A stretch of DNA of 64,000 nt from Escherichia coli (lineage in GTDB: Bacteria; Pseudomonadota; Gammaproteobacteria; Enterobacterales; Enterobacteriaceae). Positions 7,352-48,400 of this stretch are shown one piece after another. The notes beneath the pieces were generated by a model. The model saw only the letters and a list, made by a program, of their open reading frames with translations, was not told the origin of the DNA and made no database searches. The number at the start of each line of letters is the position of its first letter. The first letter of the stretch is position 1. The DNA lies in assembly GCF_050920415.1 (NCBI RefSeq), contig NZ_CP169309.1; one strand, 5' to 3'. A program made the translations under genes and the position numbers.

Positions 7352-7703
7352 TCATTTACTCCAATTCAGTTATTCGCCTCTGTACAAAAGCACACACAGA
7401 TTTTGAATTAATGGCGTACAAAAACATAATCGGATGAAAATACCACACCGGAATATTACTGATATAGCGGGATCTTACTCATTCGCTAGACTGAAAATGC
7501 AATTGAACAGAAATTTCTTACTAGTGTTTTTATCAGATGATCGGAAAGGAAATCAACTCACTGGCAAGTATCATAAGCTCAAATTGGCATATTGTATATT
7601 CCCATAAATACTTTTATTTTTTGATTAACATACTCAATACTACACATCACTAATTGAGAGAAGATTAACTTCATCATCTTTGATTAGGTACGTTTTTTAA
7701 TTT

Positions 7704-7922
7704 TCAATGACGCATCATAAAAAAGGGCTTACCAAGTTTAACACTAATAACAGGATATAAAGAAAACATATTGCTATATGAATCCTTTGGCGATGTTTTG
7801 GTTATGGTAATCTTTCCTTCTTTCAAGTGCTCTGCTATTATATGAAATTGAATCGGTCTTGTTGCATCACTTACCCGCAATGGATTACCAGCGTAAGCTT
7901 CATATCCTCCACCATTATTCAT
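7704..7922 (-). other. gene fragment in AT-rich debris (open frame extends upstream to 8020 without a start codon)
   Basis: ORF track plus manual frame extension; no start or RBS, low-complexity AT-rich context. Confidence 0.2.
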
Positions 7923-8268
7923 ATGTAAAATAGTGTATTCGTCATTTAAAAATGACTGCTTACTATCGTAGACTTGGTAGTATATATTACTTATATCAAG
8001 ATAAATTACTATAGAGATATACTTAATTTTTCATTTAGCATTAATGATGTATCCATGGAATCTATACATCTTTCAATATCAGTTATTTTTTCTTCTATAT
8101 ACGTAGCATAATTTTTTGGCACTGGCGTGTTTAGCCCTCATATACCCTCATTAACTAAGACACCATTTTGCTTGCTTTTTACATTGTAATAAAGACAATC
8201 AATATTGAATTTATTATTTTTATATTTCAGTGTTGTATATACAGTAAAATCATGCAGCGAACGCCCAT

Positions 8269-8544
8269 CTAAAACAATTGCGGGCGTGTCAGAAAAAAGT
8301 CAAATGAATAAGATGGATTATTTTCATAATCAGTCATAAATTTCATCTTTCTTATTTCATGATCAACGATCGCATAGATCTCATGATTAGATTCATCATA
8401 TCCATAAATGATTTCACCACCAGTACTGGCAGTAGCAGTAGCACTACTACAAATCAACATAATTACAAGTACATATCTAGTCAAGTTGAAAATCCTTAGG
8501 GGCAGATGATGTTTTTTCCAAGATGGATTGAAATTTTTCAACAT
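8269..8544 (-). CDS. hypothetical small protein with hydrophobic N-terminal segment, possibly a degraded or orphan immunity gene
   Basis: ORF track; segment YVLVIMLICSSATATAS resembles a signal peptide; AT-rich context. Confidence 0.25.
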   Translation of the reverse strand: MLKNFNPSWKKHHLPLRIFNLTRYVLVIMLICSSATATASTGGEIIYGYDESNHEIYAIVDHEIRKMKFMTDYENNPSYSFDFFLTRPQLF

Positions 8545-8854
8545 AAGAATCCATTAATTGCTTCTGATATTTTTCATTAATTATTTTTCGCGTATTATTA
8601 TATTAAATTTTATCACTGTTAATATATGTGGGGATTTTTACTCGTAAAAATCCCCGCCTCAATTCCCCAAATCATAATTGATACAGGACACAACTCTAGC
8701 AATGGTATCGTGAATAGTTTTCTTTAATAAGGCACGTCTCAATTCTTGAACATAAATTCGAATTATTTAGTAAAAAAACATCATCCCTGGGAGTATTACC
8801 TATTTTTGTATAATGCTATATTTATAGTAAACAATTCACAAGAAAATATTATTA

Positions 8855-9805
8855 CTAATATTTATATTCCTCCCACTGAGCACCGTATCGATGCTTTAAC
8901 AGTTTAACTTTAATTTCATCATATGTTTTAACTTTACTACCATCAATCTTAAGGCGAATTTTATTCGAGGTGATATCAACATAATTTCTATTTTCCCCAC
9001 CCGCAGGGAAAAAATCAAACATAAAATTAGACATGTTTTGTTCTTTTTTCATGAGAGCTCCATACTCACACATGTCATTTATATTTTGTATGTATGGAGT
9101 GCCCCCCTGACATGATGGATAATGAAAATCAATTATAGTAAAAAGCGATTTATTGACACTCCTCTGAAAGAACCACTTATTATTTACAATACGATAGGTT
9201 AAAGATTTAAATGTATACCAGTGACTTCCTGGAAGAAAAGAGTAAGCTTCATTAAGATTGACAGTAAATACCTTAGTTTCTCCAGAGGAAAGCTTTACCC
9301 ATTCTGATTTTATATCACAATTATCGCCCATACCAAAATAAAGCTCATCATTGGCATCATCCTCAACAAAATCACATATATTGGTTGCGGAAGGACGGAA
9401 TTTCAGATAGAAACCACTTGTGGATATTAAAAAAGAATCCTCACATAAAGGAGAAAAAAAATAAGGCTCCGATGTGTGTGAGGAGATAGGTAATAATCGT
9501 CTATGAATGAAATTTTCGCTACCCCCCAAATTTGTAAAACTTATTTTTGCTAACACACGAGAGTCAATTTGCTTAACGGTTAATCTAACATCAACATCAA
9601 ACATATTACGATTTGGCAATTTTTCCTCGACTCCGTCAGTGTAATGTGATAACTCAAGTATATTGTCCTCAAGAGTCATCGAATTTAATTTTTGTTCGGA
9701 AACATATTGTGCAATAACCTCATCATTGCAGTATCCATGAAATGAAATAAACATTAGCACTGCAATCTTAACTAATCTCAAAATACTTTTCAATATTGTA
9801 TGCAT
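8855..9805 (-). CDS. putative periplasmic immunity protein (paralogue of 11491..12312) for the HExxH effector
   Basis: N-terminal signal-like segment MHTILKSILRLVKIAVLMFISF; shares SFLPGSHWYTFKSLTYRIVNNKWF with [24 protein letters not shown] of the other immunity candidate; start chosen at the internal Met. Confidence 0.5.
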   Translation of the reverse strand: MHTILKSILRLVKIAVLMFISFHGYCNDEVIAQYVSEQKLNSMTLEDNILELSHYTDGVEEKLPNRNMFDVDVRLTVKQIDSRVLAKISFTNLGGSENFIHRRLLPISSHTSEPYFFSPLCEDSFLISTSGFYLKFRPSATNICDFVEDDANDELYFGMGDNCDIKSEWVKLSSGETKVFTVNLNEAYSFLPGSHWYTFKSLTYRIVNNKWFFQRSVNKSLFTIIDFHYPSCQGGTPYIQNINDMCEYGALMKKEQNMSNFMFDFFPAGGENRNYVDITSNKIRLKIDGSKVKTYDEIKVKLLKHRYGAQWEEYKY

Positions 9806-10567
9806 TATTAAAAACCAGCGGGTCATGTTTTGATTTTAATTCTTTTGCATTGGCAATTTCTCTTTTTTTTCCCAAATCGTTACTGCTTAATCCACCATAA
9901 TACTGTTCTCCATCCCAGATAATAAAAAGGTGAGATAACTCATGGCATAATGTGGAGACTCGAGAGTTTTCTCCCGTTGGATTTTTACATGTGAAATTTT
10001 GTAAGATATCTATAGATATTCTTTCTCGATACTCTAACTTTAAAAGTTCAGCCTTCGACTTATTTTTATACTCACTACTTTGGTATTGGGGCCGATTTAG
10101 ATCTATATGAGTCGTCTGAGCAGCCGGTATACGGGCTGAACCATTGACTAAATTGGTATAATTTTTAAAATTGCCATATATTAGTTGTACATTATCTTGC
10201 GTTCGAGTTTCAATGATCAAGCTATCACAAATCATGATCATTCTGTAAACCCCCTCTTTTATAAAAGTATGTGCGTCAATATTCTTGGTTTGTGGAGTGA
10301 AGTTCCCATTATTATCTGACTTTTGACAAGGAGCATAGTGTTCCATTGTTATAATAGCATCACCTGGTAATCCAAATATATCTTCAAAATTTTTCTGATC
10401 TGCTGGTGTCCATGCTTCCAGATTTTTGCTCTGATATTCAATACTCGCTTTGTTTCTTCCAAAGCAGGCGTTATCATGTTGTAAAATTGATCAGTAACCT
10501 TTGCTTCTTTTTTACATATATTGCCTTTTTGAGTTACCCCTTGTGAACTTCCTTTGTTATTATTCAT
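9768..10567 (-). pseudogene. frameshifted paralogue of the vgrG-linked HExxH effector
   Basis: N-terminal part in ORF 10349..10582 (KEAKVTDQFYNMI versus KEQKITDHFKIMI in the intact copy), remainder in a different frame 9768..10346 carrying STLCHELSH and NNAYNIEKYFEI; frames differ at about 10346-10351. Confidence 0.5.
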
Positions 10568-10975
10568 AAACACCTCCCTCAATCATATCTATACTTTGAT
10601 GCAATAGCCTGACTTTTATCGTCAGCTCACTGTCAGTGATAAATATTTCCGTATACCCATCCTTATCCGTTTCCCCTCGCGCTTGTGTGCCGTCCTCAAA
10701 AAAGGCAATGTAGCGTGTTTCTGAATACGGTATCCCGTCATCGTCTGTAAAATGAAACTGGAGGGTGTATTTCTCAGGTTCATCCTTATCTTCATTGTCG
10801 TTCCCAGAATCATTTCCATCGCCACCACCGACCCCGCCATTGCCTTGCCCGCCCTCTGCACCACCATCTTTATCACTACCTTCATCCGTCAGTGCCTCCA
10901 GCACGCCCGGTTGCAGTGTCGGTACCGGAGTCCCCGGACTACCCCCACCATTCAGATTTATCTTCGGCCCCCAGG
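10560..10975 (-). pseudogene. vgrG 3' fragment (C-terminal about 135 codons of a second vgrG allele)
   Basis: Nucleotide-level similarity to the 3' end of the intact vgrG (for example CCGTCCTCAAAAAAGGCAATGTAGCG..TTTCTGAATACGGTATCCCGTCATCGTCTGTAAAATG), breaking off at about 10975 where the H-repeat fragment begins; encodes DEPEKYTLQFHFTDDDGIPYSETRYIAFFEDGTQ. Confidence 0.6.
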
Positions 10976-11340
10976 GAAAGATTACGAAAGCCCGCTCCCC
11001 GCAAGGACTGACGCCAGATACTTTCTGTCCATGGCTGCTTTTCGCATCTTACGTCTTAACCCTGCCTTGAATACCTTATCATTCGTCAAAATATTAATAG
11101 CGATGTGCCGTATCCCTGAAAATAATTCTGCTGCATTTCCTCTTCTTATTTTGCAGTCGTCTTCATTCATTACCACGTCCAGACGCCAGTGCAGCTTATT
11201 CTCCACGTGCCCGTGGTTTCGGATTGCTGTGGCGAACTTCTCTGCGGTTAAATCAGCAGAACTGATATAATATCTGACCGTCATTTCTGGCTCTTTCTTT
11301 TGTTCTGCTATTATGGACCGAAAGGAGACTGCCACGCATA
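10976..11340 (-). mobile_element. H-repeat (ISAs1-family transposase) 3' fragment
   Basis: ORF 10982..11335 encodes ...[71 protein letters not shown]..., which I recognise as the C-terminal third of the Rhs-associated H-repeat protein; no intact transposase. Confidence 0.6.
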
Positions 11341-11490
11341 ATTTCTTCAGCCCTTTCCATTCAAACGTGAAATCAATAAGTTCATCAGGGACATCGCAAA
11401 CAATATGAAGACGGATTTCTTCTCTGCCGTGACTAAAATGCGAATTATTTAGTACAAAAAAAGCGGCGCACCTTGTTCTTTCCCAGATTC

Positions 11491-12312
11491 CTAATATGGC
11501 AACTTTAAGTTATCGCCGTCTATACTTATAGAAATTTCATCAGGGGTGACGTAAATAGAATTTTTTTCATCCTCAATTGCCCATAACTGATTAATAAAAA
11601 AGTGTTTTTTTTCATCTAATAACAAATTATCACATGTAGTAAAATTATTAATATCAAAAAGATCATCAGCACAATTAATTTTTAAATTTAAAAAATAAAG
11701 AAAAATATTATTGATTGATTTGAGTGTAAACCACTTGTCATTAACAAATTTATAGCCAGATGATTTTATAAAATAATAATTATCTCCTGGTATAAAGGCA
11801 TACATATCATTTAAGGTTATACTCAACAAAAAACTACGACCTGGTTTAATAGTATTCCACCGTTCAGGATTCGTATTAATTTCAAAAGGACATGAACCAC
11901 CTAAGTAGTCCAACGTGATATTCCCAGAGTTGATTCTGAATGGTTTTTTGCATATTGCATCATATTCATCTCCTTTTCCATCTTTTACTTTCATAGGTAG
12001 ATAATATTTAGAAAAAAAATACGTGGTAGAGCTTTTGTTAGTAAAGGTTATGTTAGCAAAAATCCTGTTATTTTTTTTACTCATAGCTAATTGAGCATTG
12101 ACATCCGCTATATAATTTATATGATTACATTTTTTCTTACACTCATCATAATTTTCGATAGGATAAATTAATGGCCTTCCTTTGATATCTCTCTCAAGCC
12201 CAAACCCGTATTTTTTTATTAAAACCATTTCATCTGCAGTCGATTGAAAGGAATAGAAAAATATAATATTTACGATTGTCATTATTATGATTTTTTTTAT
12301 AGCTTGCAGCAT
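11491..12312 (-). CDS. putative periplasmic immunity protein for the adjacent HExxH effector
   Basis: 273-aa ORF directly downstream of the effector; signal-peptide-like N-terminus [26 protein letters not shown]; paralogous to 8855..9805. Confidence 0.5.
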
Positions 12313-12335
12313 TAATATATTTCTCGACTTATTAG

Positions 12336-13127
12336 TTAATGGAGAAGTGCTTTTTCTAATTCCGCTATTTTTTTCTTAACTAAATTGCTTAATATTTCAT
12401 CATTAATCGAGTCTATCTCACTTTCAATTAATCTTATTTCAAAATATCTTTCTATGTTATATGCATTCTCAAATATTTGATCTTTTTGTTTAGAGATCAG
12501 TTTAGTTGCAATACGGATATGTTCGTCATATGAAACTTCATCCTCTTTGCACGTTGAATATTTATCAGTAGTTGTATAATCCTGTGACCACATACCACCT
12601 TTTTTATTATCCCTATAATACCACTGAATATGAGACATTTCATGACATAAAGTAGCAACATGAGAATCCTTTCCCGTTACTGGATTTTTTTTGCCATCTC
12701 TATACTCAAATTTTGCGCCTATGTTAATTATATAGGGCATATCCTTACTTGGGCTGACGAATGCTGCAAATTCATTACAACCTGTATAATTTATAAAACT
12801 GCTCATTGTTAAATCATTAGCTATAATCATTAATCTTCTCACACCATCCATCATAAGAAATCTAGCATTCATGCGCCTGCCTGTATTATGTCCATATTTT
12901 CTTATATTAACTTCCTTATTTCCTTTAACACCAAAGATCTTACTGAAATCATATTCCTCCTGTGCTCCCCATCTCAAAAGATCATCTGCTCTTTTTATCA
13001 AAACCAACTTTTGTGCCTTACGAGCCTTATCAATCATTATTTTAAAATGATCAGTTATTTTTTGCTCTTTCACACATTCTTCTGGCTCTGGCTTTGGTTG
13101 TCCAGAAGTTTGATTATTATCGTCCAT
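12336..13127 (-). CDS. putative T6SS effector, zincin-like metallopeptidase (HExxH motif), vgrG-linked
   Basis: HEMSH in ATLCHEMSHIQWY; no signal peptide; probable start MDDNNQ at 13127 overlaps the vgrG stop by 11 bp; conserved C-terminal ENAYNIERYFEI shared with the paralogue. Confidence 0.55.
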   Translation of the reverse strand: MDDNNQTSGQPKPEPEECVKEQKITDHFKIMIDKARKAQKLVLIKRADDLLRWGAQEEYDFSKIFGVKGNKEVNIRKYGHNTGRRMNARFLMMDGVRRLMIIANDLTMSSFINYTGCNEFAAFVSPSKDMPYIINIGAKFEYRDGKKNPVTGKDSHVATLCHEMSHIQWYYRDNKKGGMWSQDYTTTDKYSTCKEDEVSYDEHIRIATKLISKQKDQIFENAYNIERYFEIRLIESEIDSINDEILSNLVKKKIAELEKALLH

Positions 13128-15522
13128 AGTGTCCTTCCATTGAGAGAAAATCATCATTCGCAAATAGCAACTTCACTTTAATTTCATGTTTGCTAGATAC
13201 AAAAAAACGCTCTGTATACCCCTCTTCATCCGTTTCTCCGCGGGTCTGCGTGCCATCCTCAAAGAAGGCAATGTAGCGGGTTTCTGAATACGGTATCCCG
13301 TCATCGTCTGTAAAATGGAACTGGAGAGTATATTTTTCAGGTTCATCCTCATCGTCACCTCGATCATCACCACCACTTCCGGTCACGCAGTTCCCTCCAG
13401 AGTTTTCATTTTCTTCTCCGGAATCACTGCCATCACCACTCTTCTCATCCCCCAGTGTCTTCAGCACCGCCGGTTGCAGCGTCGGTACAGGCGTCCCCGG
13501 ACTGCCTCCCCCGTTCAGATTTATCTTCGGCCCCACTATATCCACGCCCCCTGAATGGATGACCACAAACGAGCCACCCAACTTCAGGCTTATCCGGCTG
13601 CTGCTCTCCAGCACGATATCCCCGTCCACCTTTATCCCCAGCGCACCACTCACCTTCCTCGCCAGGTCGCCTTTCACCTCCAGGCTGTGTTTTCCCTCCA
13701 CCAGGCTGATGTGGTTTCCTGTCGTTTTGTGCTCCTGCTTCCCTTCCACCGTCACCTTTCGGTCGTTTCTGACGTACAGACCGTCATCGTGGCTGACGTT
13801 CACCCGCCGGTCGTTCGTCACCTTCAGCGTCTGGTCGTTGCGCACCGTGATGCTCCGGTCATGGGCCACCGTGATACTCTGGTCGTGGCCCCCTTCTTTT
13901 CTGGTGCCGACCTCAACCGTCTGCCCCTTCACCACCCTTATCTTCTGGTCGTTACCGATGGTCTCCGTATGGTCATGCTTCACGTCCGTCGTCCGGTCGT
14001 TAAGCACCTCCGTGTCCATGTTCTTCTGCGCGTGGATATACACCTGCTCACTGTCCGTCGCATCCTCGAAACGCAGTTCATTAAAGCCGCTTCCTTTATA
14101 GGTCTTCGAGCGGATGGTCATCTGCGTCCGCGTGCCCGGTAAATCCCCCGGTGAACGGTTATCTTCATGGTAGGTCCGCCCCGTCACAATGGGCTGGTCC
14201 GGGTCTCCGTTCAGAAAGTCCACTATCACTTCCTGACCCACACGCGGTATCGCCAGATTGCCGAACCCCGGTCCCGCCCATGCCTGCGACACCCGTATCC
14301 AGCATGAACTCTCCTCCGTCATCCCGTGATAACGGTCCCAGTGAAACTTCACCCGTACCCGGCCATGCTCGTCGCAGAATATCTCCTCGCCCTTCGGCCC
14401 GGTCACGATGGCACTCTGCGGGCCGTCCACCTTCGGCTTCGGCAGCGGCGCGTGACGCCACGTCCTGTCTGCCGGTATCACCTCAAACTGGTTACTCAGC
14501 GTCGTCCCTTCACCGTGACTGCCGTGCAGCGCCTGCGGCTGTTCTCCCCGCAGTGTGCTTCCCACAACCTGCCATTCCCGGTTCAGCGTATCCGACGGGT
14601 GACCCGACAGGGTAAACCGCGTTCCCGGCCACAGCCGCGCCGTGTTACACACCCCGCTCGCCGTCTCCGCCCCGTTCCGCCACCCTTCCGTCTGGTAACG
14701 CGCAAAATCCTGGCCATGCTGCTCATCCTTGAAACGCCCCGGATAATCAAATATCTCGTACTGCGTTCCCTGCCCGTTCAGGCTCTCCCCGTCATGGCTG
14801 TAGTACCCCGGCCACCCCGGCACTTTAAACGTATAATCCTGCGTCTCCACCGACGCCACGCTTATCTGCGCACGGTAACGAAACTCACTGATGTACTCCG
14901 TCGTTCCCCCGGTCGTCGTGTTCGGGTTAAACGCCAGCGCCCCCATTCCCGTCAGCCCCGCCACGTCATCACACACCGCCAGCTTCTGTTCCGGCCCGTC
15001 CTGACTGCAGCGTTCATAAAAGAAGATACCTTCCTCCGCCCACAGCCGGGTCAGGAACGCCAGGTCGCTCTCCCCGTACTGCACGCAGAACTCCCGCGCC
15101 GGATGGTCTTCATAAAACAGCGGCATCCACGCCGTCACCCCGTTCTCTCTCAGAAGCTGTGCTGATATCGTCCCGATGTCCTGCTGCTGGAAGATACGGA
15201 AGTTCTGCCGTAACCCTGCCCGCCACAGCGGCGGGCTGATGCTCAGGGAATAACGCATCTGCCAGTCGTTGTTCTCACCGAGCTGCACCTCCGTCACGAT
15301 ACCGCTGACGTAACGCTGTGCAGTGTCGCCCTGCCAGACCGTCAGCACCGCGCTTTTCTCCAGAAAATCCTCCGCCGTCAGGTCGGACAGCCCGCTGGCG
15401 ATATCCACATCCAGGATGAACGGTGTGCAGTGGTGCTGGTACAGACGGAAGCTCACCACCGCCGTCGCCATCTCCACGATGTCGTCCACCGACAGCGTGA
15501 AACGTAATCCTTCTGAGGACAT
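13117..15522 (-). CDS. vgrG: T6SS spike protein VgrG with C-terminal extension (Gly/Asp/Glu-rich linker plus TTR-like adaptor domain)
   Basis: gp27/gp5-like core (LRFTLSVDD..., octapeptide beta-helix repeats KIRVVKGQTVEVGTRKEGGHDQSITVAHDRSITVRND...); likely start MSSEGLRFTL at 15522 (ORF track begins at 15555). Confidence 0.85.
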   Translation of the reverse strand: MSSEGLRFTLSVDDIVEMATAVVSFRLYQHHCTPFILDVDIASGLSDLTAEDFLEKSAVLTVWQGDTAQRYVSGIVTEVQLGENNDWQMRYSLSISPPLWRAGLRQNFRIFQQQDIGTISAQLLRENGVTAWMPLFYEDHPAREFCVQYGESDLAFLTRLWAEEGIFFYERCSQDGPEQKLAVCDDVAGLTGMGALAFNPNTTTGGTTEYISEFRYRAQISVASVETQDYTFKVPGWPGYYSHDGESLNGQGTQYEIFDYPGRFKDEQHGQDFARYQTEGWRNGAETASGVCNTARLWPGTRFTLSGHPSDTLNREWQVVGSTLRGEQPQALHGSHGEGTTLSNQFEVIPADRTWRHAPLPKPKVDGPQSAIVTGPKGEEIFCDEHGRVRVKFHWDRYHGMTEESSCWIRVSQAWAGPGFGNLAIPRVGQEVIVDFLNGDPDQPIVTGRTYHEDNRSPGDLPGTRTQMTIRSKTYKGSGFNELRFEDATDSEQVYIHAQKNMDTEVLNDRTTDVKHDHTETIGNDQKIRVVKGQTVEVGTRKEGGHDQSITVAHDRSITVRNDQTLKVTNDRRVNVSHDDGLYVRNDRKVTVEGKQEHKTTGNHISLVEGKHSLEVKGDLARKVSGALGIKVDGDIVLESSSRISLKLGGSFVVIHSGGVDIVGPKINLNGGGSPGTPVPTLQPAVLKTLGDEKSGDGSDSGEENENSGGNCVTGSGGDDRGDDEDEPEKYTLQFHFTDDDGIPYSETRYIAFFEDGTQTRGETDEEGYTERFFVSSKHEIKVKLLFANDDFLSMEGHYGR

Positions 15523-15805
15523 ATAAACCCCATAGCTACCGCACTCATGGTGCAAACCCTACAGAATTATAAGAAAGACTTAAGTGAGATATCCGTCAGA
15601 TAGCAACTATTAGGAAAATATTTATATACATTTCATGAATACATTCATTAATACCGAGATGTTTTTGTCTATATAAACAGAGCAAGCTAACGTCCTCACT
15701 CCATGAAAGAAACTACGTAGGGGCCTTTCGGTCCATAACAACTTTTTCCCTGTTATATCCTGACGTTCTGGTCTACTGGTGTAGTCATGCATATTGCAAC
15801 GTTCT

Positions 15806-15915
15806 ACCCATGGAAAGATAAATAAAGCCAGCTCTCCGCAAGGACTGAAGCGAGGTGCTTTCTGTCCATAGCTGCTTTTCGCAACTTACTCCTTAACCCA
15901 ACACTGAATTTCTTA
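15806..15915 (-). mobile_element. short H-repeat (ISAs1-family) 3'-end remnant, direct repeat of 10976-11065
   Basis: About 110 bp about 85% identical to the 3' end of the H-repeat fragment at 10976..11340 (..CCGCAAGGACTGA..CTTTCTGTCCAT.GCTGCTTTTCGCA..); encodes ..[25 protein letters not shown]. Confidence 0.45.
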
Positions 15916-16055
15916 TGATTTGTCACAGTATGAACTTTTAATTTCATACATTGCTCTTTAGTCAATAGAAGAAAAATAAGCACCCTCTCCCAAACGACAC
16001 AAATAACCTGCAAATGGGAAATGACTTATTACTTAGAAATTTGCAGAGATATAAA

Positions 16056-16337
16056 TCACGAGATATATCCACCTTTTGAGTTAACAGTTACAGACGTTAT
16101 AACATTATCTTTTATCCAGATATCAACAAAAAAGTCCTTACCACAATAAAGACATTCACAATATCCTTCAGAGATAAAGTTGTCCTTAAGTTTATTTCTG
16201 GTTATATTAATAAGTTTATCGCCAGGATTGTAATGTACTAAATTTCCAGATGGCACAAACATCTCAATTTCACACTGTCCTGACGTTCCACATCGAGGGC
16301 AAACGCACCATGCTTTCAATAAATCATAATTCGACAT
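16056..16337 (-). CDS. hypothetical Cys-rich zinc-ribbon-like small protein
   Basis: 93-aa ORF with two Cys clusters (CVCPRCG and CECLYCG); located between ybbP and vgrG. Confidence 0.35.
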   Translation of the reverse strand: MSNYDLLKAWCVCPRCGTSGQCEIEMFVPSGNLVHYNPGDKLINITRNKLKDNFISEGYCECLYCGKDFFVDIWIKDNVITSVTVNSKGGYIS

Positions 16338-16387
16338 TATATTACCTTAATTTATTTCACATCAGCATCCCCCCTTGCAAACCACAA

Positions 16388-16744
16388 CTAAACTATTCCC
16401 ATAAAATACAACGAGATAATTTTACTGTTAAACGTACATTCACAAAACTCAGGGGAAGAAAAATGACCATCAGTCAAAAATAAAGATAGTTTGCTTAGTG
16501 CGTAATCAATTGAATCAAGCGACAAGTATAATTTTATTACTAGTGAGTTCTGTATCAGGACATCATTTTCATTGGGGGATTGTAAAAGTAATAAATTTTT
16601 ATACGCTACAGGTGATCTGTTTTCCAGTCTAATAGGTTTGCTTGCTTCCGTCTCCAATAAACTATAAAGAGCACAAACCATCTCATGAGCATCATCTTTC
16701 TCAAAATGTAAATGAAACCCGCCCAGAGATTTATTAGCAATCAT
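16388..16744 (-). CDS. hypothetical protein
   Basis: 118-aa ORF from the ORF track in the AT-rich island flank; no recognisable motif. Confidence 0.3.
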   Translation of the reverse strand: MIANKSLGGFHLHFEKDDAHEMVCALYSLLETEASKPIRLENRSPVAYKNLLLLQSPNENDVLIQNSLVIKLYLSLDSIDYALSKLSLFLTDGHFSSPEFCECTFNSKIISLYFMGIV

Positions 16745-16841
16745 AATACGTTTCTAAAGTTGATTTGAAATTTTGCATTTCATGCTCATCAAAAAAATAA
16801 ATATATTTTAACTACAAAGCAAACATCACAGCGCATAGCGG

Positions 16842-17057
16842 TTAATATTCTACCTTAACGACTTTCATTCCTCTTTCAATCATACCATTAATTAATTGAT
16901 AATACTCTTTATCCCCTACATCTACTATTAGAATATGTCCGGTAAGTTCATTGATGAATAAATACTCAGGTTCCTCATCTGTACCAGCATTTGAAATAAC
17001 CCAACCTGGATCAGTACCATCTATAAAAAACTCCCACTCTTTAAAATTAACACTCAT
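16842..17057 (-). CDS. hypothetical small acidic protein (possible orphan immunity protein)
   Basis: 71-aa ORF, compact acidic protein, AT-rich context next to a polymorphic-toxin island. Confidence 0.3.
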   Translation of the reverse strand: MSVNFKEWEFFIDGTDPGWVISNAGTDEEPEYLFINELTGHILIVDVGDKEYYQLINGMIERGMKVVKVEY

Positions 17058-29669: not shown

Positions 29670-30077
29670 TCACCCCGCTCGATGATGACAGCAGCCGGAG
29701 AGATTTTCGATAATTGGGCAGTCGGCGCTGTCATCACCGGGGCAGGCATTCGCCAGCGCCAGTAGCTGGTCGCGCATGGATTGCAGCTCCTCAATGTGCC
29801 GTTCGATCTCCGCTACCTTCTCCAGCGTACGACGTTTGACGTCGGCACTGTGACGCTGCGGATCGTTAAACAGATTCACCAGTTCGCCGCTCTCTTCCAG
29901 GTTAAAGCCCACCTGGCGCGCCTGGCGCAGTAAGGTCAGTTCGTTGAGATGCTGCTGCGTGTAGGTTCGATAACCATTTTCGCTGCGCATCGGCGGCGTC
30001 ACTAGCCCCTTTTCTTCATAGAAGCGAATGGCTTTGCTGGTCAGGCCGGTAATTTTTGCTACATCGCTAATGTTCAT
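29670..30077 (-). CDS. cueR: MerR-family copper-responsive transcriptional regulator
   Basis: 135-aa [29 protein letters not shown]... with C-terminal metal-binding Cys pair (CPGDDSADC), matching recalled CueR. Confidence 0.92.
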
Positions 30078-31249
30078 CGTTCGCGCAACGCCTCCTGTGC
30101 TTTGTTAAAGGGTTTCAACAGATAATCCAGCACGCTTTTTTTGCCGGTGCGGATATCGACCGTCGCCACCATGCCGGGAAATATCGGAAACTGCTGTTTA
30201 TGTTTATTTTCCAGATGGTTGCTGAAAGTGCGAATGTACACCCGATAGTAATAAACATCGCGTCGCACTTCATCCTGCACGGTGTCTGGTGATATCACCG
30301 CCACTTCCCCCGGCAGGCCGCCGTAGATGGAGTAGTCGTAAGCGGTTATTTTCACCAGCGATTTTTGCCCCGGATGGATAAACGCCACATCGCGGGGGGA
30401 GATTTTTGCCTCGATCAACAGTTGCTCATCCAGCGGCACGATAGTCATAAGTTTACCACCGGGGGCGATGACGCCGCCAACCGTGGTGACGTCAATGTCC
30501 TGAACAATGCCTCGCACCGGCGCAGTAAAGTTGAGCCGGGTGAGAGAATCTTCCCGCCCGCGGATCACCGAACGCTGGGTTTCCACTTCCGCATTGGCTT
30601 TCGCTAACTCTTCCCGCGCCTGTACGTAGTATTGCGTACGCACGTCGCTAAGTTTGTTTTCCAGTTCATTGGCCTGGCGTTGCAGGCGCAGCACTTCAAC
30701 GCTGCTCGCCGCCCCCTGTTTCACCAGCGGCTGGGTCATCGCCAGTTCGCGGTTGACCAGGCTGATCCCCTGCGTCAGCCCGGTGGTGGCTTTGTTCAAC
30801 CCGTCGCGGCGAGTGTTATATAACGCCGTTTCCGACTCGATAAGTTCGGGGAATTTATTCAGTTCGTCAGGAAAGACCAGCGGTTTATTGCTCACTTCTG
30901 CCCGCAGCCGCGCCGAGGTTGCCAGCGCCGCATACAGCCGCGACATCGCTTCCTGGACGTCGGATTCCGTTTTGGTGCGGTTAAGCTGCGCCAGCGGCTG
31001 CCCCTGTTCGACAATATCGCCAACCTTCACGTCGAGATGATACAAAATCCCGCCTTCCAGCGACTGCACCACCTGTTCGCGTCCAGAAGGTTCTACCGTG
31101 CCGCTGCCGGTGGTGACTTCATCAAGCTGGAAGTACCACGCCCAGCCGAGAAAACAGAGCAGCATCACAGCGGTAACGCGCACCGCCAGCGCCGAACGTG
31201 GCAGGCGGGGTTCAGTCAGGCCACGGTTGTATTGCAGTTGTCCGTTCAT
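30074..31249 (-). CDS. type I secretion periplasmic adaptor (HlyD-family membrane fusion protein)
   Basis: 391-aa ORF with N-terminal TM segment, coiled-coil and beta-barrel domains; overlaps the ABC gene by 4 bp. Confidence 0.85.
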
Positions 31250-33408
31250 GCGGCAGACCCCTTATTCTTCTCCTGCAACACCACGCGTCGCGTCGTGGGT
31301 TCGCCCTGTTCACGCAAAATGGTCTCTTTCGCGCCGTCCATCACAATGCGCCCCTGATCCATCACAATTATCCTGTCCACCAGTTGCAGCATTGCCGTGC
31401 GGTGAGTAGCGATGACCAGCGTGCGATGCCCAATCCACTGTTTTAGTTGTTCAATTAAATACGCTTCCGCCATTTCATCCAGCGAGGCACTGGGTTCATC
31501 GAGCAGGACGATATTGGGTTGAGAGATGAGCAGCCGCGCCAGCAGCAGCGTTTGCCGCTGGCCGCCAGAAAGACCAAATCCCCCTTCCTGAATCATGTAG
31601 TTAAGGCCGTTTTTCTGCTTCTGCACAAACGGCAGCGCCCCGCTGAGGGTCAACGCGCGTTCGATATCTTCATCGCTGGCTTCTGGCATCCCCATGGTGA
31701 GATTTTCCCGCAGCGAACCGAAGAACAGTCGCCCAGTCTGGCTCAGCAGCCCCATGTCGCGGCGCAGATCCGCCGGATCAAGTTGCCCGATGCTGATGTT
31801 ATCCAGCAGCACCTGCCCCTGCTGGGCGATACGCATTCCGGCGAGCATTTGCAGTAGCGTTGATTTACCCGCGCCGTTGCGCCCGAGAATGGCGATTTTC
31901 TCTCCGGCCTGAATGTTGAGTTTGCCGATCGCCACATCGGCAATCTTCTCTTCTTCGTCGTAATAAAACACCGCGTTGCTGAACTGATAATTTCCGTGCA
32001 GCACTGCTTTATGCACCAGTTTGCCGTGTTCCGGCTGATCCACCGGGCGCTTCATCAGTTCATCAAGGCCATTACGCGCCACTTTCGCCTGCTGCCAGCG
32101 CGAAAGCACGCCGGATATCTGCGACAGCGGCGCAATGGTGCGCGAAGCCAGGATCGTCGTCCCGACCAGCGCGCCGGTGGTCATGTCGCCGCTCATCACC
32201 ATAAAGCAGCCCACCAACAGCACCACCACATAGACGATGGATTGCACTTCCTGCGTCCAGGTGAGCAGCAGCCCGGTGAGAAAACGTTGCTTCATACTGA
32301 TGGACGAGGCCACGTCGTTGGTGTGATTCCACTGATTCTGGAAACGCTGTTCAGCACGCAGCAGTTTAATGTCTTCAATCGACTGCACGGCCTCGACAAG
32401 CGTAGCGTTGCGCACTGCCGATTCGCGCATCCCTTCGTTCGCCAGCCGCGCCAGCGGGCGTTGCACCAGCAGGCCGGGGATCACCAGCAACGGCAGCGCC
32501 AGCAAAACAACCAGCACCAGCCAGCCGCCGATCATCCACAGAATAAAAACAAACAGCAGGAAGAACGGCAGATCCGCCACCGCGCCAATGGTGGTGGAGG
32601 TGATCAGCTCCCGCACCGATTCCAGTTCGCGGATCTGTGAGATAAACGATCCGGTGGATTTCGATCGCACGTTATTTTTCAGCCGTAATGCGTGACCAAA
32701 CACGCGATCCGAAATACGCAGATCCGCCCGTTTGCCGATCACATCGGAAAGGTGTGTGCGCACCATGCGCATACAGAACTCAAACAGGATCGCCATCATC
32801 ACCCCGGCGAACAGCACCCATAGCGTCGGGTAGGACTGCGCCGGAACAACGCGGTCGTAAACCTGCATCGAGAAAATCATCGCCGCCAGCGCCAGCACGT
32901 TCGCCACCAGCGAGGCCAGCATAATATCGCCATAGCGCCGCCAGTCTTTTAGCGAAAGATTCCAGAACCAGTTAGCCTGATACGGGCGAATGTAGTCATC
33001 CACCCGCGCATCGGGGATGGCGCTGAGCGGGCGCAGTAGCGCCAGTTCAACGATTTTGTCTTCTATATCCGTGACGTTTAGCGTAGTTTCCAGCCCTTCG
33101 TCACCGCTGAACTGAACGCTGATATTATCGTGATTGTCGCGGCGGGTGATCACGCCAATCTGTTGATTATCAAACACCGCGATCAACGGCAGACGCCAGG
33201 GGTTAAGCGAATCAGTGGAAAACTCCACCAGCCGTAGCCCCATCCCCAACTGCCGCGCCATGTCGGTGAGCAACTCTTCCCGCTTGCTGTCGCGCTCCCA
33301 GTTGACGGTCGCGCGCACGTTCTCCTGGGAAAAATCGAGGCGGTAATAACGCGCCACGGCGATCATCGCCTCCAGCCAGGCTTCCACGGACTGGGCATTT
33401 TTTTTCAT
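31246..33408 (-). CDS. type I secretion ABC transporter (N-terminal C39-like domain, permease, ATPase)
   Basis: 720-aa ORF with Walker A GRNGAGKST, signature LSGGQRQ and Walker B LLDEPSASLD; about 130-aa N-terminal extension typical of HlyB-type exporters. Confidence 0.88.
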   Translation of the reverse strand: MKKNAQSVEAWLEAMIAVARYYRLDFSQENVRATVNWERDSKREELLTDMARQLGMGLRLVEFSTDSLNPWRLPLIAVFDNQQIGVITRRDNHDNISVQFSGDEGLETTLNVTDIEDKIVELALLRPLSAIPDARVDDYIRPYQANWFWNLSLKDWRRYGDIMLASLVANVLALAAMIFSMQVYDRVVPAQSYPTLWVLFAGVMMAILFEFCMRMVRTHLSDVIGKRADLRISDRVFGHALRLKNNVRSKSTGSFISQIRELESVRELITSTTIGAVADLPFFLLFVFILWMIGGWLVLVVLLALPLLVIPGLLVQRPLARLANEGMRESAVRNATLVEAVQSIEDIKLLRAEQRFQNQWNHTNDVASSISMKQRFLTGLLLTWTQEVQSIVYVVVLLVGCFMVMSGDMTTGALVGTTILASRTIAPLSQISGVLSRWQQAKVARNGLDELMKRPVDQPEHGKLVHKAVLHGNYQFSNAVFYYDEEEKIADVAIGKLNIQAGEKIAILGRNGAGKSTLLQMLAGMRIAQQGQVLLDNISIGQLDPADLRRDMGLLSQTGRLFFGSLRENLTMGMPEASDEDIERALTLSGALPFVQKQKNGLNYMIQEGGFGLSGGQRQTLLLARLLISQPNIVLLDEPSASLDEMAEAYLIEQLKQWIGHRTLVIATHRTAMLQLVDRIIVMDQGRIVMDGAKETILREQGEPTTRRVVLQEKNKGSAA

Positions 33409-33411
33409 TCT

Positions 33412-36400
33412 CTACACCACCATCAACTGATGATTCGCCAGTAAGGTGGCGAGGTCGGTATGCACGCCCGTCAGCGTGACCACGTTAGTTGTCGCAAAGC
33501 CGCCGCCCGTGCCGTCACGGTCGATCTGCACGATGGTGTCGCTGCCGCTCTGGGTGACTTTGACAAAATCACCGATGTTCCCGACCTGGGCATCCAGCGT
33601 TGCCACACCGTTGACATAGCTAGCTTTGCCGTTTCCGGTGTAGCCGCTGCCCTGTAACAGTTCACGAATATCAATGCGATCGGTGTCGGCGGTGCCTTCC
33701 CAGGTGCCTACCGTAAAGCCATTCACCACGTCCGAACCGTTGCCCCCGGTGGCGTCACTGGCGTTAAGCAGTTTATAGAGCAAGGTATCGTGGCCGCCGT
33801 TGCCGATGTTGAGCGTGTCGTTACCGCCGCGCCCTTCCAGTTGGTTATCGCCGCTGCTGCCGGTCAGAGTGTCATTAAAATTCGAGCCGGAAATCCCTTC
33901 GATATTGGTAAATGTCGAGGTATTAAAACCGGTGGCCTGTGCAGTGGTGACGCTTAAGTTAGCGGTGACGCCCACCGTTGAGAGACGGAAATCGACCACG
34001 TCCATGCCGCCGTTCGCCAGCCAGGTTCCTGTGCCGGAGCTGTACACCCAGCCGCCGGAACCGTCGTAGGTGTCGGTGCCTGCGGTGGCGAAGAAGGTGT
34101 CGTTATAGCCAGTGCCGACAAACTTGCCGTTGTTGCTCGCCGTACCCGCTTCAGCACTGAGATCGTAAGCGTGAGTAGCATCGGTGGCCTGTAAGCCGCC
34201 CCATGTGGTGTTTACCGTCTGGTCGATATTGCTGGCGGTAGTACCGGTGGATTTGATCAGCACCGCGTTGTAGGTTTCTCCCGCGTTAAGTCCGTAGAAG
34301 TTGACCAGCGCCGAGGTGTCGTTAACGCCCATTCCCGACTGCGGGTTGATGATTTGTGTCGCCACCAGCACACCCGCCGAGTTGTACAGCTTCACGGTAT
34401 TGCCGTAATAGACGTTAATACCGTTAGGATCGGTGATACGCAGGTGCAGCGAGGTGCCGTAGCTCACCGTGTTGGTGTTGCGGATCAGGAACACGCTGCC
34501 CGACTGTTTGGTCACCAGCACATCCACCGCGCCGTCCCAGTCGTAGTCCATTGCCGCCACGCCGCTGGTAGTGCCGCTCTGGCTGCCACCGAGTGCCGAT
34601 TGTGTCCAGTTACTGGCGTTACTGACGTTGGTATAAAGATACGACTGCCCGGTCTGGGCGATACGGGCGATGTCCATTAACCCGTCATGATCCCAGTCGA
34701 CGGCCAGGCTGAATTGACTGGCGTAGGTGGTTGCCGTCGCGCCGACCGCCACCGGGCTACCCAGCACGCCGTTGGTGTTGAATAACAGCGAGCCGTAGTT
34801 AGCTCTTCCCTGGCTGGCGGGCAGGAAGAGATCCATATCGCCGTCACCATCGAAATCGGCCCATGTCATGGAAACGGATGCCGAGTTTCCCCCCGAGCCA
34901 GGACTACTGAGGAAAGTATTGACGGTGTTTTGTCCCCAGACGAAGGTGCCATTGCCCTGACTTATCAACGATGAGAGGGTGAAGTTGTTGTTCAGGTTGA
35001 AAGTGTGCTGAACCAGATCAATTCTGCCGTCATTATTGAGATCGACACCGGAACCTTCGTTGAGTGACAGATAACCGGTTACCGCCCCACCGACCGTAGC
35101 ACTCCCCCCGTTATTAGCGGTGGTGGAGTTGCCTGTCAGGGTGCCGGCGTTGTTCCACAGGAAGGTATTAGAGTCCGGTCCACCGGCGTCGCCAATCCAG
35201 AAATCAAGATAACCGTCGCCCTCTTTATCGAACGCCACAATCGAGCCATACCACGTCAGGGTGCCAACGTTCACCTGGATGGCGCTGGAAAACGTACCAT
35301 CGCCGTTATTAGTAAAGCCGTTGATATACCCCGTGCCGTAGTCATCACGGGTAATAAACAGATCGCCCGTACCGTTACGGTTGTAATCGGCGATGGAGCT
35401 GGTGGCATAGTTGTTGCCACTTTGCACCAGCGTCAGGGCGGTTTTCGACCAGGTGAGCGGATCGGTGGATTGCATAATTTGCTGGTTGGCCAGCACTGTC
35501 CACATCCCGTGTGTGTCGAGGCCGTAGGTCAGCCCCCATGCGGTGGATTTGCTGGTGGTGGTCCAGGTCGGTGTGTAATCTATCGCCGCGTTAACCGTCA
35601 CCGTGCCAGTGCTGACGTTAGCGGTGTTACCGTTACCCGCCGAGCTTTTTACCTGCGCGGTGACGTTATAGGCGGTCGCAGACGCCGCCAGCGCGTCGGT
35701 ATCCGGCAGTTGCACATACCAGGTGTTGTGCGCCGGATCGACCACCACCGCACCGCCCGGTTGCGAGGTGTAAGTTTTGCCGTTGATCACCACTTCAACA
35801 TACTGCCCACTGGCAAGTGCCGCCGTGATTACGCCGCTGATAATCGGCGTGGTATCGCGTGTGGTTTGATTGGTGATTTGCGCAAGCGTGGTCGGAATAG
35901 AGGTATCGACAGTCAGGATAAAATCGCTGGAGGAGGTGATATTCCCTGCCAGATCCACCACTCGTGCGCTGTAGGTATAGGCACCGCTGACCAGACCACT
36001 GTCGCTGTAAGTCCAGTTCAGCGCGCCGACCATCGTTACCGCACCTAACAGCAGACCGTTACGGTAGAGGTAAACGACTTCACCGCTGGCAAGCGGCGCA
36101 GAGAGCACGCCGTTTAACAGCGGCGTAGTGTCGTCGGTGGCCTGCGAACTGCTTAATGTCCCCTGCCGCTGCCCGACATCATCGGTATACGACACAATGG
36201 TCGGCGTGGCGGTGGGGTTAATCGTATCGACCACCACCGTTTTCGATACCACCGGGCCTGTATTTCCCGCCAGATCCAGCACCCGTACCTGATAAACGTA
36301 GCTGCCGTCGGTCAGCGTGCGGCTGTCAGTGTAAGTCCACTGCGTACCGTTGGTGGTGAGCGTGGTCCAGGTCGCGCCGCCATCGAGGCTAATCTGCGCC

Positions 36401-45400: not shown

Positions 45401-48400
45401 ACGCCGACGCTCCAGGTGCCATCGGCGAGTACCGTTGCGCCGTAGGTGACGTTGTTGATGACTACCGTCAACGCCGCGCCCGCCGCCAGTCCGCTACTGC
45501 TACCGGTGACCACCAGCGCCTGAGTGTGCTCAATGCTGTTAATCACATCATCGCCTGCCACGGTATCGACCCGCAGGCCTGGCAGATTGGCGTCTATCAC
45601 GATGTCGTGCGTTGCGGTGCCAGTATTATTTGCGGAATTAGTCACCGAGGCGCTGATGGTCAGTTCACCGTTACCCAGCGCCTGCAAATCTGCCGCAGGC
45701 ACGCTGACGCTCCAGCTTAAATCTGGCTGCACGGTGGCAATGTATTGATTACCACCAATAGTGACAATCACCGTATTCCCCGCAACCGCCGTCCCCGTAA
45801 CCTGTCCGCTGAGGGTCTGGTTAACGGCGATTTCAGCGGCGTTGATAATGTCATCACCCGCCACAGTATTAATGATTACCCCTGGCAGGAGCGATTCGAC
45901 ATTCACCGTATGGGTAGTACTACCGCTGTTACCCGCGCTGTCGGTGGCGCTGGCGCTAATCGAATAAACCGCCTCGCCCAGTGCGCCGACCGCCGAAGCC
46001 GGCACGGTAACGCTCCAGTTGCCGGAGCCGTCGGTGGTGGCGCTGTACGCCAGGCCGTTCAACATCACGGTGACCGTAGTGCCTGCCGCCAGGCCGCTGG
46101 AGACGCCGCTGATGATCAGATCCTGGGTTTTCTCCGCATTATTAATAATGTCATCACCGGAGACAGTGTTAATGGTCAGCGTCGGGCCACTGAGATCAAC
46201 GGTCACATCGTGAGTCGTGCTGTCGCTGTTGCCCGCGCGATCGCTCAGGCTGGCGGTGATGGTCTGGCTACCGGTTGCCAGTGCCGTGACATCCGCCGCC
46301 GGAATACCCACACTCCAGTTACCGGAGGCGTCCAGCGTTGTGGTGTAGTTTTTACCGTTCAGCGTGACGGTCACCACATCGCCTGCCGCCGCGCCCGTAC
46401 TGGTTCCGCTCACCACCAGCGCCTGCCCGTGTTCGATGGCGTTGATAATGTCATCGCCCGCGACGGTGTTAATGGTGAGATCCGGCGCGGTCACGTCCAC
46501 CGCCAGTGCATGATCCGCGCTTGCCGGATTGCCCGCTTTGTCGCTCACCGTGGCGGTCACGGTATAACTGCTGGCGGTTAATCCGCTTAAATCTGTCGCC
46601 GGAACGTTCACACTCCAGGTGCCATCGGCCTGGACGGTAGTCTGGTACGTGTTGTTATTGAGCGTGACAGTCAGCGTCTGCCCGGCCTGCGCCGTGGTGG
46701 TGCCGCTGATGGTTATCCCCGCGCCCGCTTCGCTCACGTTGAGAATATCGTCGCTGGCGATGGTGTTGATGGTCACAAGCGGCGCGGTGGCATCGACGCT
46801 GTACGCGCGATCGGCCTGGGCGCTGTTGCCGTAAATGTTGCTGACACTCGCCTGCACGTTGCCCGCGCCGTCCGGCAACGCAGCGAGATCGGCAGGCGGC
46901 ACATTCACCGTCCAGCTACCGTTGGTTTCCACAGTGGTGGTGTAATTTTTGCCGCCAAAGGTGACGGTCACCGTCTGCCCGGCTTCTACACCGCTGGTAC
47001 TGCCGCTCACCACCAGCGTTTCGCCTTTTTCGACGGCATTGATCACATCATCGCCGGAGAGAGTGTTAATGGTTATGGCGACCGCCGCCAGATCGACGGT
47101 AACCGGATGGGTAATGGTGGAGGTTGTTCCGGCACTGTTGGTGCCGCTTACCGTGATATCCACCGTACCCGCAGGCCAGTTGCTGACGTCTGCCGCCGGA
47201 ACGCCGAGGTTCCATGTGCCGTCGGCTAACACCGTGGCAGCGTAAGTGACGTTGTTAATCACGACCGTTAATGCCGTTCCTGCCGTCAGCCCGGTGCTGC
47301 TACCTGTTATCACCAGCGCCTGATTGTGCTCAATGCTGTTAATAACATCATCGCCCGCTACGGTATCGACCCGCAAACCAGGCAGATTGGCATCGATCGT
47401 AATATCGCGCGAGCCGCTGCCGGTATTACCAACGTCATTGGTGACCGAGACGTTAACTGTCAGGTCGCCGTTACCCAGCGCCTGAATATCCGCCGCTGGA
47501 ACGCTAACACTCCAGCTTAAATTAGCCTGCACCGTGGCGGTGTAGGTGTTGCCGCCCAGCGTGACGGTAACCGTATCCCCCTGCGCTGCGCCCGTGACCT
47601 GGCCGCTGATGGTCTGGGCGTTACCAGATTCAGCGGCGTTAATAATATCGTCAGTCGCCACTGCGTTAATGGTGACGGCAGGCAAGGCGCTGTTGACCAG
47701 CACATTATGGCTGGCGGAATTACTGTTGCCTGCCGTATCAGTGACGTTCGCGGTTACTGTGTAGTTAGCTTCACCCAACGCGCTAACCGCTGACACTGGC
47801 ACCGTGGCGCTCCAGTTGCCACTGCTATCGGTGGTAGCGGTGTAATTTTGTCCGTTCAGCGTCACTGTAATGGTGGTGCCTGCGGGCTGATTACTGGTGC
47901 CAGTAATTTGCAGATCCGCGCCTTTTTCTGTGGCGTTAATCACGTCATCGCTGGCGATAGTGTTGATGCCAATGGTTGGCGCGGTGAGATTTACGGTGAC
48001 CGTGCGGCTGGCATCATCGCTGTTGCCTGCCGCATCGGTAATGGCCGCAGTGATGGTTTGCGGGCCGCTGCCCAGCGCAGTGACGTCTGCTGCCGGAACG
48101 CCGACGCTCCAGTTGCCGGAGGCGTCCAGCGTGGTAGTGTAGGTTTTACTGTTTAACGTGATGGTGATGACATCGCCCGCTTCGCCGCCAGTGCTGGAAC
48201 CGGAGATCACCAGCGCCTGTCCGTGTTCGGCGGCGTTAATGATGTCATCGCCGGAGACGGTGTTAATGGTTAAAACTGGCACGGTGAGATCCACCGCCAG
48301 GCCGTGAGTGGCGGTCGCCGGGTTACCCGCTTTGTCGCTTACCGAGGCGCTGACCGTGTACGGGCTGGCGGTCAGATTGCTGAGATCTGTTGTCGGCACG

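Follow-up and report, generated by a model that had tools for sequence, protein, structure and literature searches.

What does the VgrG spike protein encoded in a low-GC (guanine plus cytosine) island of an Escherichia coli chromosome carry, and how would the producing cell be protected from its cargo? The question is raised by a window of 64,000 nucleotides (the whole stretch of DNA that was analysed; contig NZ_CP169309.1 of assembly GCF_050920415.1; all positions below are those of the window). In it, an intact vgrG gene is followed by a gene for a protein with an HExxH motif and by a gene for a protein with a predicted signal peptide. Our analysis suggests that these three genes form a type VI secretion system (T6SS) spike-cargo module that carries an aspzincin toxin and its immunity protein, an interpretation to which we assign a probability of about 0.78.

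According to the mechanism that we propose, a 263-aa aspzincin zinc metallopeptidase would be made without a signal peptide or propeptide, loaded non-covalently on the VgrG trimer via a conserved C-terminal domain of approximately 70 aa, and fired into neighbouring Gram-negative cells, where it would be toxic through proteolysis, with the periplasm as the most probable site. The 273-aa protein encoded downstream would be exported by the Sec pathway to the periplasm of the producer and its kin, and would bind and neutralise the incoming effector there. Its beta-sandwich most likely caps the active-site cleft, as the propeptide of the Aeromonas salmonicida protease AsaP1 is said to do in cis, so that a zymogen would have been split in two genes. 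A second copy, separated from the first by ISAs1 sequence, would be an orphan cassette with an intact immunity gene and a frameshifted toxin gene.

Organization of the Module

The module lies in an island of 27-35% GC (vs approximately 53-59% in the flanks) between mnmH (ybbB) and ybbP/ybbA, and all genes of the module and of the orphan cassette are on the minus strand. The intact vgrG (tssI) occupies 13117..15555 (812 aa from a TTG, the longest open reading frame (ORF)) or, from the RefSeq start, 13117..15522 (801 aa). Its product is a full TssI (TIGR03361, E = 9e-177) with the Pfam domains Phage_GPD, Phage_base_V, and two copies of Gp5_trimer_C. The effector gene (WP_000342580) was placed at 12336..13127 when read from the RefSeq start, an ATG at 13127 that gives 263 aa and follows a Shine-Dalgarno-like GGAAGGA run by 5 nt; the ORF from a TTG is 12336..13163 and gives 275 aa. 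The effector start and the vgrG end overlap by 11 nt (13117..13127), and 23 nt separate the effector stop from the ATG of the immunity gene (11491..12312; 273 aa; WP_001355187).

The first-pass annotation of this DNA had described an intact vgrG whose stop codon is overlapped by an ORF with an HExxH motif, a product of 263-275 aa with TLCHEMSH and no signal peptide, and a downstream protein of 273 aa with a signal peptide, and all three parts of this layout were confirmed. The highest Kyte-Doolittle value of any 15-mer in the effector was 1.11, and inspection revealed no hydrophobic segment. In the immunity protein, a hydrophobic core (Kyte-Doolittle 2.35-2.9) is followed by S-T-A|D. Inspection thus gave a predicted Sec signal peptide of residues 1-26 (12235..12312, minus strand), ending in ...QSTA|DE and having no lipobox. 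In the aligned -1 column, Ala was present in five of the six other homologues (those of the PAR locus, L004, and of loci L005, L007, L009, and L011), and Tyr was present in the orphan paralogue of the window.

The Effector Is Predicted to Be an Aspzincin Metallopeptidase

The HEMSH sequence forms residues 162-166 of the 263-aa effector (12630..12644, minus strand), where H162 and H166 are the predicted zinc ligands and E163 the predicted catalytic base. An alignment of 18 effector homologues (A1), with identities down to about 30%, was used to determine which residues are conserved. H162, E163, H166, and D183 were invariant; the last of these (12579..12581, minus strand) lies in GGMWSQDY and is a candidate third zinc ligand. 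Also invariant were N221, A222, Y223, N224, E226, R227, Y228, and F229, with I225 nearly so (NAYN(I/V)ERYF). These residues belong to a NAYNIERYFEI block (12435..12467, minus strand), to which NADNHEYFAE corresponds in the tail of AsaP1.

When the A1 profile was compared with PDB sequences, it matched AsaP1 (2X3A, residues 255-337) at E = 1.1e-6 and the Grifola frondosa peptidyl-Lys metalloendopeptidase GfMEP (1G12) at E = 1.2e-3, and the HExxH motif of the effector was aligned with those of both proteins. An AlphaFold model of the effector was obtained with a predicted local distance difference test (pLDDT) score of 89.5 and a predicted template modelling (pTM) score of 0.88, and its best Foldseek matches were 1G12, 2X3A, and the Aspergillus deuterolysin 1EB6. 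The zincin-like character suggested earlier was thus borne out, with M35 peptidases, i.e., a peptidase fold, at the top of the structural matches. The profile and model matches to M35 structures together argue that the HExxH motif is not incidental, and the modelled fold is unambiguously that of an aspzincin (M35). We infer from these features that the effector binds zinc and acts as a peptidase.

Searches with single sequences were less informative. A phmmer search of PDB with the effector gave no match, nor did NCBIfam and PADLOC scans of the effector, the immunity protein, and both paralogues. Across the family, 14 of the 18 members matched Pfam Aspzincin_M35 (PF14521) at E<=0.1 and two at E<=0.001. 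The aspzincin motif that carries the third zinc ligand, an Asp, is GTxDxxYG, which is located downstream of HExxH (PMC12924839). Remoter relatives retrieved with the A1 profile have this canonical motif, together with a NADNFEYY tail. The catalytic domain of the effector begins approximately 25 residues from its N-terminus, with neither a propeptide nor a signal peptide in cis, and an extra helical tail is present at the C-terminus (residues ~232-263). In contrast, 1G12 and 1EB6 are secreted fungal enzymes with a canonical GTxDxxYG.

In GfMEP, the Asp and Glu of the NAD tail motif are said to shape a Lys-specific S1' pocket. Because the Asp of this motif is replaced by Tyr223 in the window effector and an Arg is inserted, Lys-N specificity cannot be assumed. 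We speculate that E226 and R227, in the tail equivalent to the S1' region, could accommodate side chains that are zwitterionic, for example that of meso-diaminopimelate; if so, cleavage of peptidoglycan or of the Lpp linkage would be implied. A Salmonella effector described as "Peptidase_M91 / Tox-HopH1" (SED_RS06335), which came to attention through a weak M91 Pfam match, was considered as a relative and rejected. It is an unrelated PAAR-Rhs protein, and its immunity partner is a transmembrane protein of 110 aa.

A Homologous Pair from E. coli PAR Has Been Tested

A related locus from E. coli PAR comprises VgrG^PAR, DUF2345^PAR, M35^PAR (AKO63_2955), and the immunity gene AKO63_2956 (Commun Biol 2023, PMC10673891). 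M35^PAR was toxic in E. coli when expressed from pET22b, which the authors describe as a periplasm-targeting vector; the toxicity was relieved by co-expression of AKO63_2956, and co-immunoprecipitation showed that M35^PAR bound VgrG solely via the DUF2345^PAR piece (PMC10673891). We located this locus in NZ_CP012379, where the primers of that study match the ends of L004:2630-3418 and L004:3503-4429. The vgrG gene there is a frameshifted pseudogene, which explains why two "genes", VgrG^PAR and DUF2345^PAR, were described.

The window effector and M35^PAR share 30% identity (E = 2e-33); for the immunity protein and AKO63_2956, the value is 31% over 137 residues (E = 6e-22). The exported immunity partner proposed earlier is backed by its predicted signal peptide and by its homology to the neutralising partner in PAR. 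As in PAR, the HExxH, the Asp, and NAYNIERYFEI are kept, the gene order is the same, and VgrG ends in the same tail of approximately 70 aa (54% identity). Unlike M35^PAR, the window effector has the extra C-terminal helical tail. Moreover, the window vgrG is intact and has a gp5-C type body and an acidic linker with no Pfam DUF2345 match, and the module is in a satellite island, whereas that of PAR is inside a T6SS cluster.

The first-pass annotation had called the pair uncharacterised and its family unrecognised. Neither description holds, given that the homologous PAR pair had already been found to be toxic and neutralised (PMC10673891), and the effector is already listed in RefSeq as an "M35 family metalloendopeptidase" or "peptidase M35". 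Its contrast with enteroaggregative E. coli (EAEC), where Tle1 was said to be carried instead, was misleading, since EAEC 042 has the same PAAR-vgrG-M35-immunity module, 99.2% identical, between yncG and yddH. With the class annotated and one relative tested, the pair itself is not a discovery.

A minor observation concerns the expression construct. As printed, the forward primer for pET22b-AKO63_2955 has GAATTC joined directly to ATGAGT (PMC10673891). In pET-22b, such a junction would presumably remove the insert from the reading frame of the pelB leader (…AAT TCA TGA), in which case the homologue may have been expressed without periplasmic targeting; alternatively, the printed primer may contain a transcription artefact.

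The Effector Is Distinct from VgrG2b and Tpe1

One alternative is that the effector belongs with the gluzincins formed by the C-terminal domain of VgrG2b and by Tpe1 (DUF4157), and that, like VgrG2b, it acts by detaching lipoproteins or by interfering with cell division. The C-terminal domain of Pseudomonas aeruginosa VgrG2b is thermolysin-like, with Glu983 as the third ligand, and is grouped with Tpe1 under DUF4157 (PMC6899460). The VgrG2b-PA0261 pair and Tpe1-Tpi1 of A. baylyi also feature an HExxH metallopeptidase on or as VgrG that acts in the periplasm and is countered by an exported immunity protein, and their delivery involves a transthyretin (TTR)-like linker (PMC6899460). Furthermore, both kinds are VgrG-delivered HExxH zincins reported to be toxic on periplasmic targeting, and PMC10673891 equates AKO63_2955 with the metallopeptidase domain of PA0262.

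However, the invariant candidate third ligand of the window effector is Asp183, whereas that of VgrG2b is Glu983. Pfam assigns Aspzincin_M35, and no DUF4157 match was found for the effector or the family members. No VgrG2b chain was present in the PDB profile search (E<=10), nor did one occur in the full set of 21 Foldseek matches (E<=10). The two belong to different zincin families, with no sequence or fold match seen between them in these searches. The immunity proteins also differ in kind. Those of the VgrG2b family are described as lipoproteins, as a soluble periplasmic protein (PA0261), or as a protein whose N-terminus forms a transmembrane helix, whereas the window protein has a propeptide-like beta-sandwich. 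We therefore regard the gluzincin assignment as highly improbable. The effector and VgrG2b/Tpe1 are functional analogues and not one family, and the "M35" equation in PMC10673891 is a loose one. The aspzincin toxins form a family distinct from the better-studied gluzincins with which they had been conflated.

The Module Is Widespread and Linked to T6SS Carriers

A megablast search with 11400..13300 against 5,426 complete E. coli genomes found the whole stretch (at least 80% coverage) in 508, and the protein cluster of the effector comprises over 1,100 sequences. An HMMER search over 1.84 billion representatives retrieved 266 proteins at E<=1e-3, and 25 of these passed E<=1e-30. For four diverse homologues, the contigs that encode them were identified; these belong to Salmonella, Buttiauxella, Franconibacter, and the assembly that holds loci L011 and L012. 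In all four, the gene directly follows vgrG and overlaps its end, and the ORF on its 3' side encodes 206-301 aa that have no Pfam domain and can be aligned with the window immunity protein. Overall, the order vgrG-effector-immunity was observed at nine loci in at least five genera, together with an overlap between the end of vgrG and the start of the effector gene and with downstream genes that are homologous to one another. The presence of the module in about one-tenth of complete E. coli genomes, and also in Salmonella, suggests that it probably has a role in interbacterial competition in the gut.

The toxin domain was also found fused to VgrG (P0119), PAAR (P0087, P0112, and P0117), and Rhs (P0193 and P0140), and such carrier fusions are typical of polymorphic T6SS toxins. 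The genes 3' of the VgrG-fused and PAAR-fused toxins encode homologues of the immunity core (hhalign, 95-98%). A signal peptide is present in the homologue of the VgrG-fused relative and absent from those of two PAAR-fused relatives, which are from metagenomic loci (L015:1024-1428 and L017:1155-1571). No report of T6SS-dependent secretion or delivery was found for any member of the aspzincin family, the interaction in PMC10673891 resting on co-immunoprecipitation. For the window effector, we infer T6SS-dependent delivery, a periplasmic site of action, and the mode of inhibition.

These data also bear on the possibility that the HExxH is incidental, or that the module has decayed and is a non-catalytic or non-functional leftover among the vgrG and ISAs1 debris that lies between ybbP and mnmH. 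An HExxH arose by chance in 1.3% of shuffles of the effector sequence; the island is low in GC, is scarred by insertion sequences (ISs), and holds fragments of vgrG as well as a frameshifted paralogue; and the adjoining vgrG is frameshifted in strain N96. In contrast, all three genes are intact in the window, the motif residues are invariant across genera, the predicted M35 fold is unambiguous, and both the cluster size and the number of complete genomes with the whole module are large. Decay or a chance motif is thus very unlikely.

The Immunity Protein May Be a Detached Pro-Domain

The immunity protein contains six Cys, and C121, C141, W152, Y171, and F173 were invariant in the immunity alignment. 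Residues ~70-207 (11692..12105, minus strand), which include C121 and C141, were modelled as a beta-sandwich with pLDDT block means of 69-93. A single-sequence Pfam search with the immunity protein gave only a sub-threshold match to DUF4352, and a first profile (A3) produced only PDZ-fragment noise when compared with PDB. A second profile, A4, was obtained by broadening A3 with two distant immunity proteins, and the match to the AsaP1 propeptide appeared only then. When A4 was aligned with a fragment of AsaP1 (residues 31-125), hhalign gave E = 7e-5, and a distant immunity protein matched the same fragment by BLASTP at E = 2e-4. The structures 1G12 and 1EB6, which are M35 enzymes without propeptides and stand at the top of the effector list, were missing from the structure matches of the immunity model. 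The match to 2X3A therefore falls on its non-protease part.

The immunity core thus corresponds to residues 31-125 of AsaP1 and the effector to residues 255-337, indicating that the pair represents the domains of an M35 zymogen encoded separately. Propeptides of M35 enzymes serve as intramolecular chaperones and inhibitors. A study of the AsaP1 precursor (FEBS Lett 2016) reportedly found that the propeptide inhibits the protease in cis. We consider it somewhat probable that the pair arose by fission of such a zymogen. The catalytic domain would have become a cargo toxin, and the propeptide, provided with a Sec signal and disulfide-bearing extensions, an immunity protein that caps the cleft; the same would apply across the cargo, VgrG-fused, PAAR-fused, and Rhs-fused members of the family. 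No paper in the searched literature states this split-zymogen relation, and a search for aspzincin or peptidase M35 together with T6SS gave nothing.

The two systems differ in several respects. AsaP1 (2X3A, 2X3B, and 2X3C) is a single Sec-secreted polypeptide activated by removal of its propeptide, whereas the domains in the window are encoded by separate genes with opposite localisation signals, and the protease is proposed to exit by the T6SS. Unlike the AsaP1 propeptide, the window inhibitor domain has N- and C-terminal extensions and extra Cys, and the effector tail reads NAYNIERYF where that of AsaP1 reads NADNHEYF.

If the split-zymogen origin is correct, the pair would clearly illustrate how the pro-domain of a toxin can give rise to the T6SS immunity protein against it, and the structure of the AsaP1 precursor would be available as a template for the inhibited complex. 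A detached pro-domain also suggests how a toxin-immunity pair may originate from a single zymogen gene, and it predicts the mode of inhibition. We consider this origin, together with the conserved VgrG tail, to be worth following.

Homology to a propeptide also raises the alternative that the protease is mainly anti-eukaryotic, like AsaP1, and that the downstream protein is a chaperone or pro-domain acting in trans. The chaperone and inhibitor roles of M35 propeptides fit such a reading, as does the absence of a signal peptide from the partners of PAAR-fused relatives, which could meet the toxin in the cytoplasm. AsaP1 itself is a toxic protease and a virulence factor in a pathogen of fish (PMC12924839). 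On the other hand, at every subfamily locus examined a hydrophobic signal is present on the partner and none on the effector, and the two would therefore be in different compartments of the producer. Moreover, the PAR homologue kills E. coli and its partner rescues the cells, and the orphan cassette combines an intact immunity gene with a frameshifted toxin gene, which is typical of antibacterial pairs. An anti-eukaryotic role is accordingly unlikely, and an antibacterial toxin with its own immunity protein is the preferred explanation.

The C-Terminal Domain of VgrG Is Shared by All Associated VgrGs Examined

The C-terminal domain of VgrG (~73 aa; EKYTLQFHFTDDDGIPYSETRYIAFFEDGTQTRGETDEEGYTE..., EKYTLQFHFTDDDGIPYSETRYIAFFEDGTQ...; 13120..13338, minus strand) is a candidate effector-binding adaptor and is preceded by an acidic linker rich in Gly and Asp. 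It is the sole region common to VgrG and DUF2345^PAR (54% identity over 67 aa, E = 8e-22), and an orphan vgrG fragment in the window is 73% identical to it over 71 aa. A tail domain of approximately 70 aa ends all eight of the VgrGs or VgrG remnants (8/8) that lie upstream of family members, whatever the type of body. The adaptor-like extension noted earlier was thus present on every VgrG examined ahead of a family member, which is consistent with a cargo-binding function of this tail.

Pfam assigned nothing to VgrG residues 633-812, and the tail had no meaningful match among PDB sequences; a single match fell on an acidic low-complexity stretch. A TTR-like fold of the tail is suggested by its motif. 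In this respect the system resembles VgrG1(TTR)-Tle1 of EAEC, in which, as far as the citing text describes it, the cargo gene is located beside vgrG and a small C-terminal VgrG domain recognises the cargo. According to the same description, Tle1 is a phospholipase, unlike the window effector, and the window tail differs in having no sequence match in Pfam or PDB.

The final 10-20 residues of VgrG (approximately) were found to sort by effector subtype (13120..13180 vs 10563..10620, and other tails). EGHYGR accompanies effectors of 263-270 aa, GGV(Y/H)E accompanies the type to which the PAR and orphan effectors belong, and effectors of 195-221 aa go with VgrGs whose ends are short and acidic. 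The extreme C-terminus is a possible determinant of cargo specificity. A conserved tail with a co-varying extreme C-terminus would be a simple system in which to study this specificity.

A separate feature of vgrG was noted in comparison with strain MFDS1022581. Within 13669..13864, 26 substitutions were counted in approximately 200 bp, and the two strains are otherwise identical over 8800..15600 save for a 1-nt deletion near 10428. The patch looks like gene conversion or recombination in the beta-helix repeat region of VgrG.

Observations That Weigh against the Interpretation

Several observations weigh against the spike-cargo interpretation or parts of it. First, the experimental support applies to the family through the PAR pair, which is approximately 30% identical, and the window pair is a diverged member; the periplasmic targeting of M35^PAR is a statement of the authors of PMC10673891. 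Second, Pfam Aspzincin_M35 (PF14521) matched the effector alone at E = 0.0045. The GTxDxxYG motif is degenerate in the effector (GGMWSQDY), D183 lies 17 residues past H166, and the Tyr at +3 from D183 is not conserved in A1. Given this degenerate third-ligand motif, catalytic competence is an assumption.

Third, the structure model of the immunity protein had an overall pLDDT of 68.6, i.e., moderate confidence. Profile A4, when compared with the entire PDB, retrieved AsaP1 only (residues 31-125) with E = 0.31, which is weak by itself, and the immunity alignment showed neither a conserved Lys nor any other residue that would be an obvious "plug". Fourth, the immunity homologues of two PAAR-fused relatives are without signal peptides, and the toxin domain is therefore not intrinsically restricted to the periplasm; aspzincin toxin domains may have different target compartments in different lineages. 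Finally, no T6SS core cluster was found in the first 50 kb of the window.

The Orphan Cassette and Its Neighborhood

A paralogue with shared sequence blocks had been noted in the first-pass annotation, and such an effector is present at 9768..10582 (TLCHELSH and NAYNIEKYFEIS). At 29% identity, it is no closer to the main effector than M35^PAR is. Compared with the intact WP_001063571 of strains N96 and MFDS1022581, it has lost 1 nt near 10428, which shifts its reading frame. The accompanying immunity paralogue (8855..9826; 323 aa in the longest ORF, 316 aa in RefSeq) is intact. Its N-terminus carries a hydrophobic signal, and it shares 23% identity with the main immunity protein (E = 1e-21). 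The orphan vgrG 3' fragment (10560..10904) has kept the C-terminal adaptor domain. Either the toxin gene has decayed while its immunity gene was kept, or the frameshift is an error of sequencing.

The main and orphan modules are separated by a remnant of an ISAs1-family (H-repeat) transposase at 10982..11443 (minus strand). Together with a second one at 15804..16013, it flanks the main module. Both are 3'-end remnants and share the sequence ...GLR(R/S)K(M/L)RKAAMDRK(Y/H)LASVLA..., which suggests IS-mediated assembly or movement of the cassette. Between vgrG and ybbP, three small low-GC ORFs (93, 118, and 71 aa) are located at 16056..17057, the first of which (16056..16337) has CxxC...CxxC spacing; they may have been left behind by effector-immunity cassettes that once occupied this hotspot, the rhsD locus of K-12.

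On the other side of the orphan cassette, the region 7700..8550 has a very low GC content (~30%) and short ORFs, and no function is annotated there in the matched strains. An ORF of 91 aa at 8269..8544 within this region encodes an N-terminal hydrophobic segment. Farther away, at approximately 30000..50000+ in the downstream third of the window, correspondence with locus L016 places a type I secretion system with an HlyD-family adaptor and a permease/ATPase, together with siiEA, a gene for a giant BapA-related adhesin.

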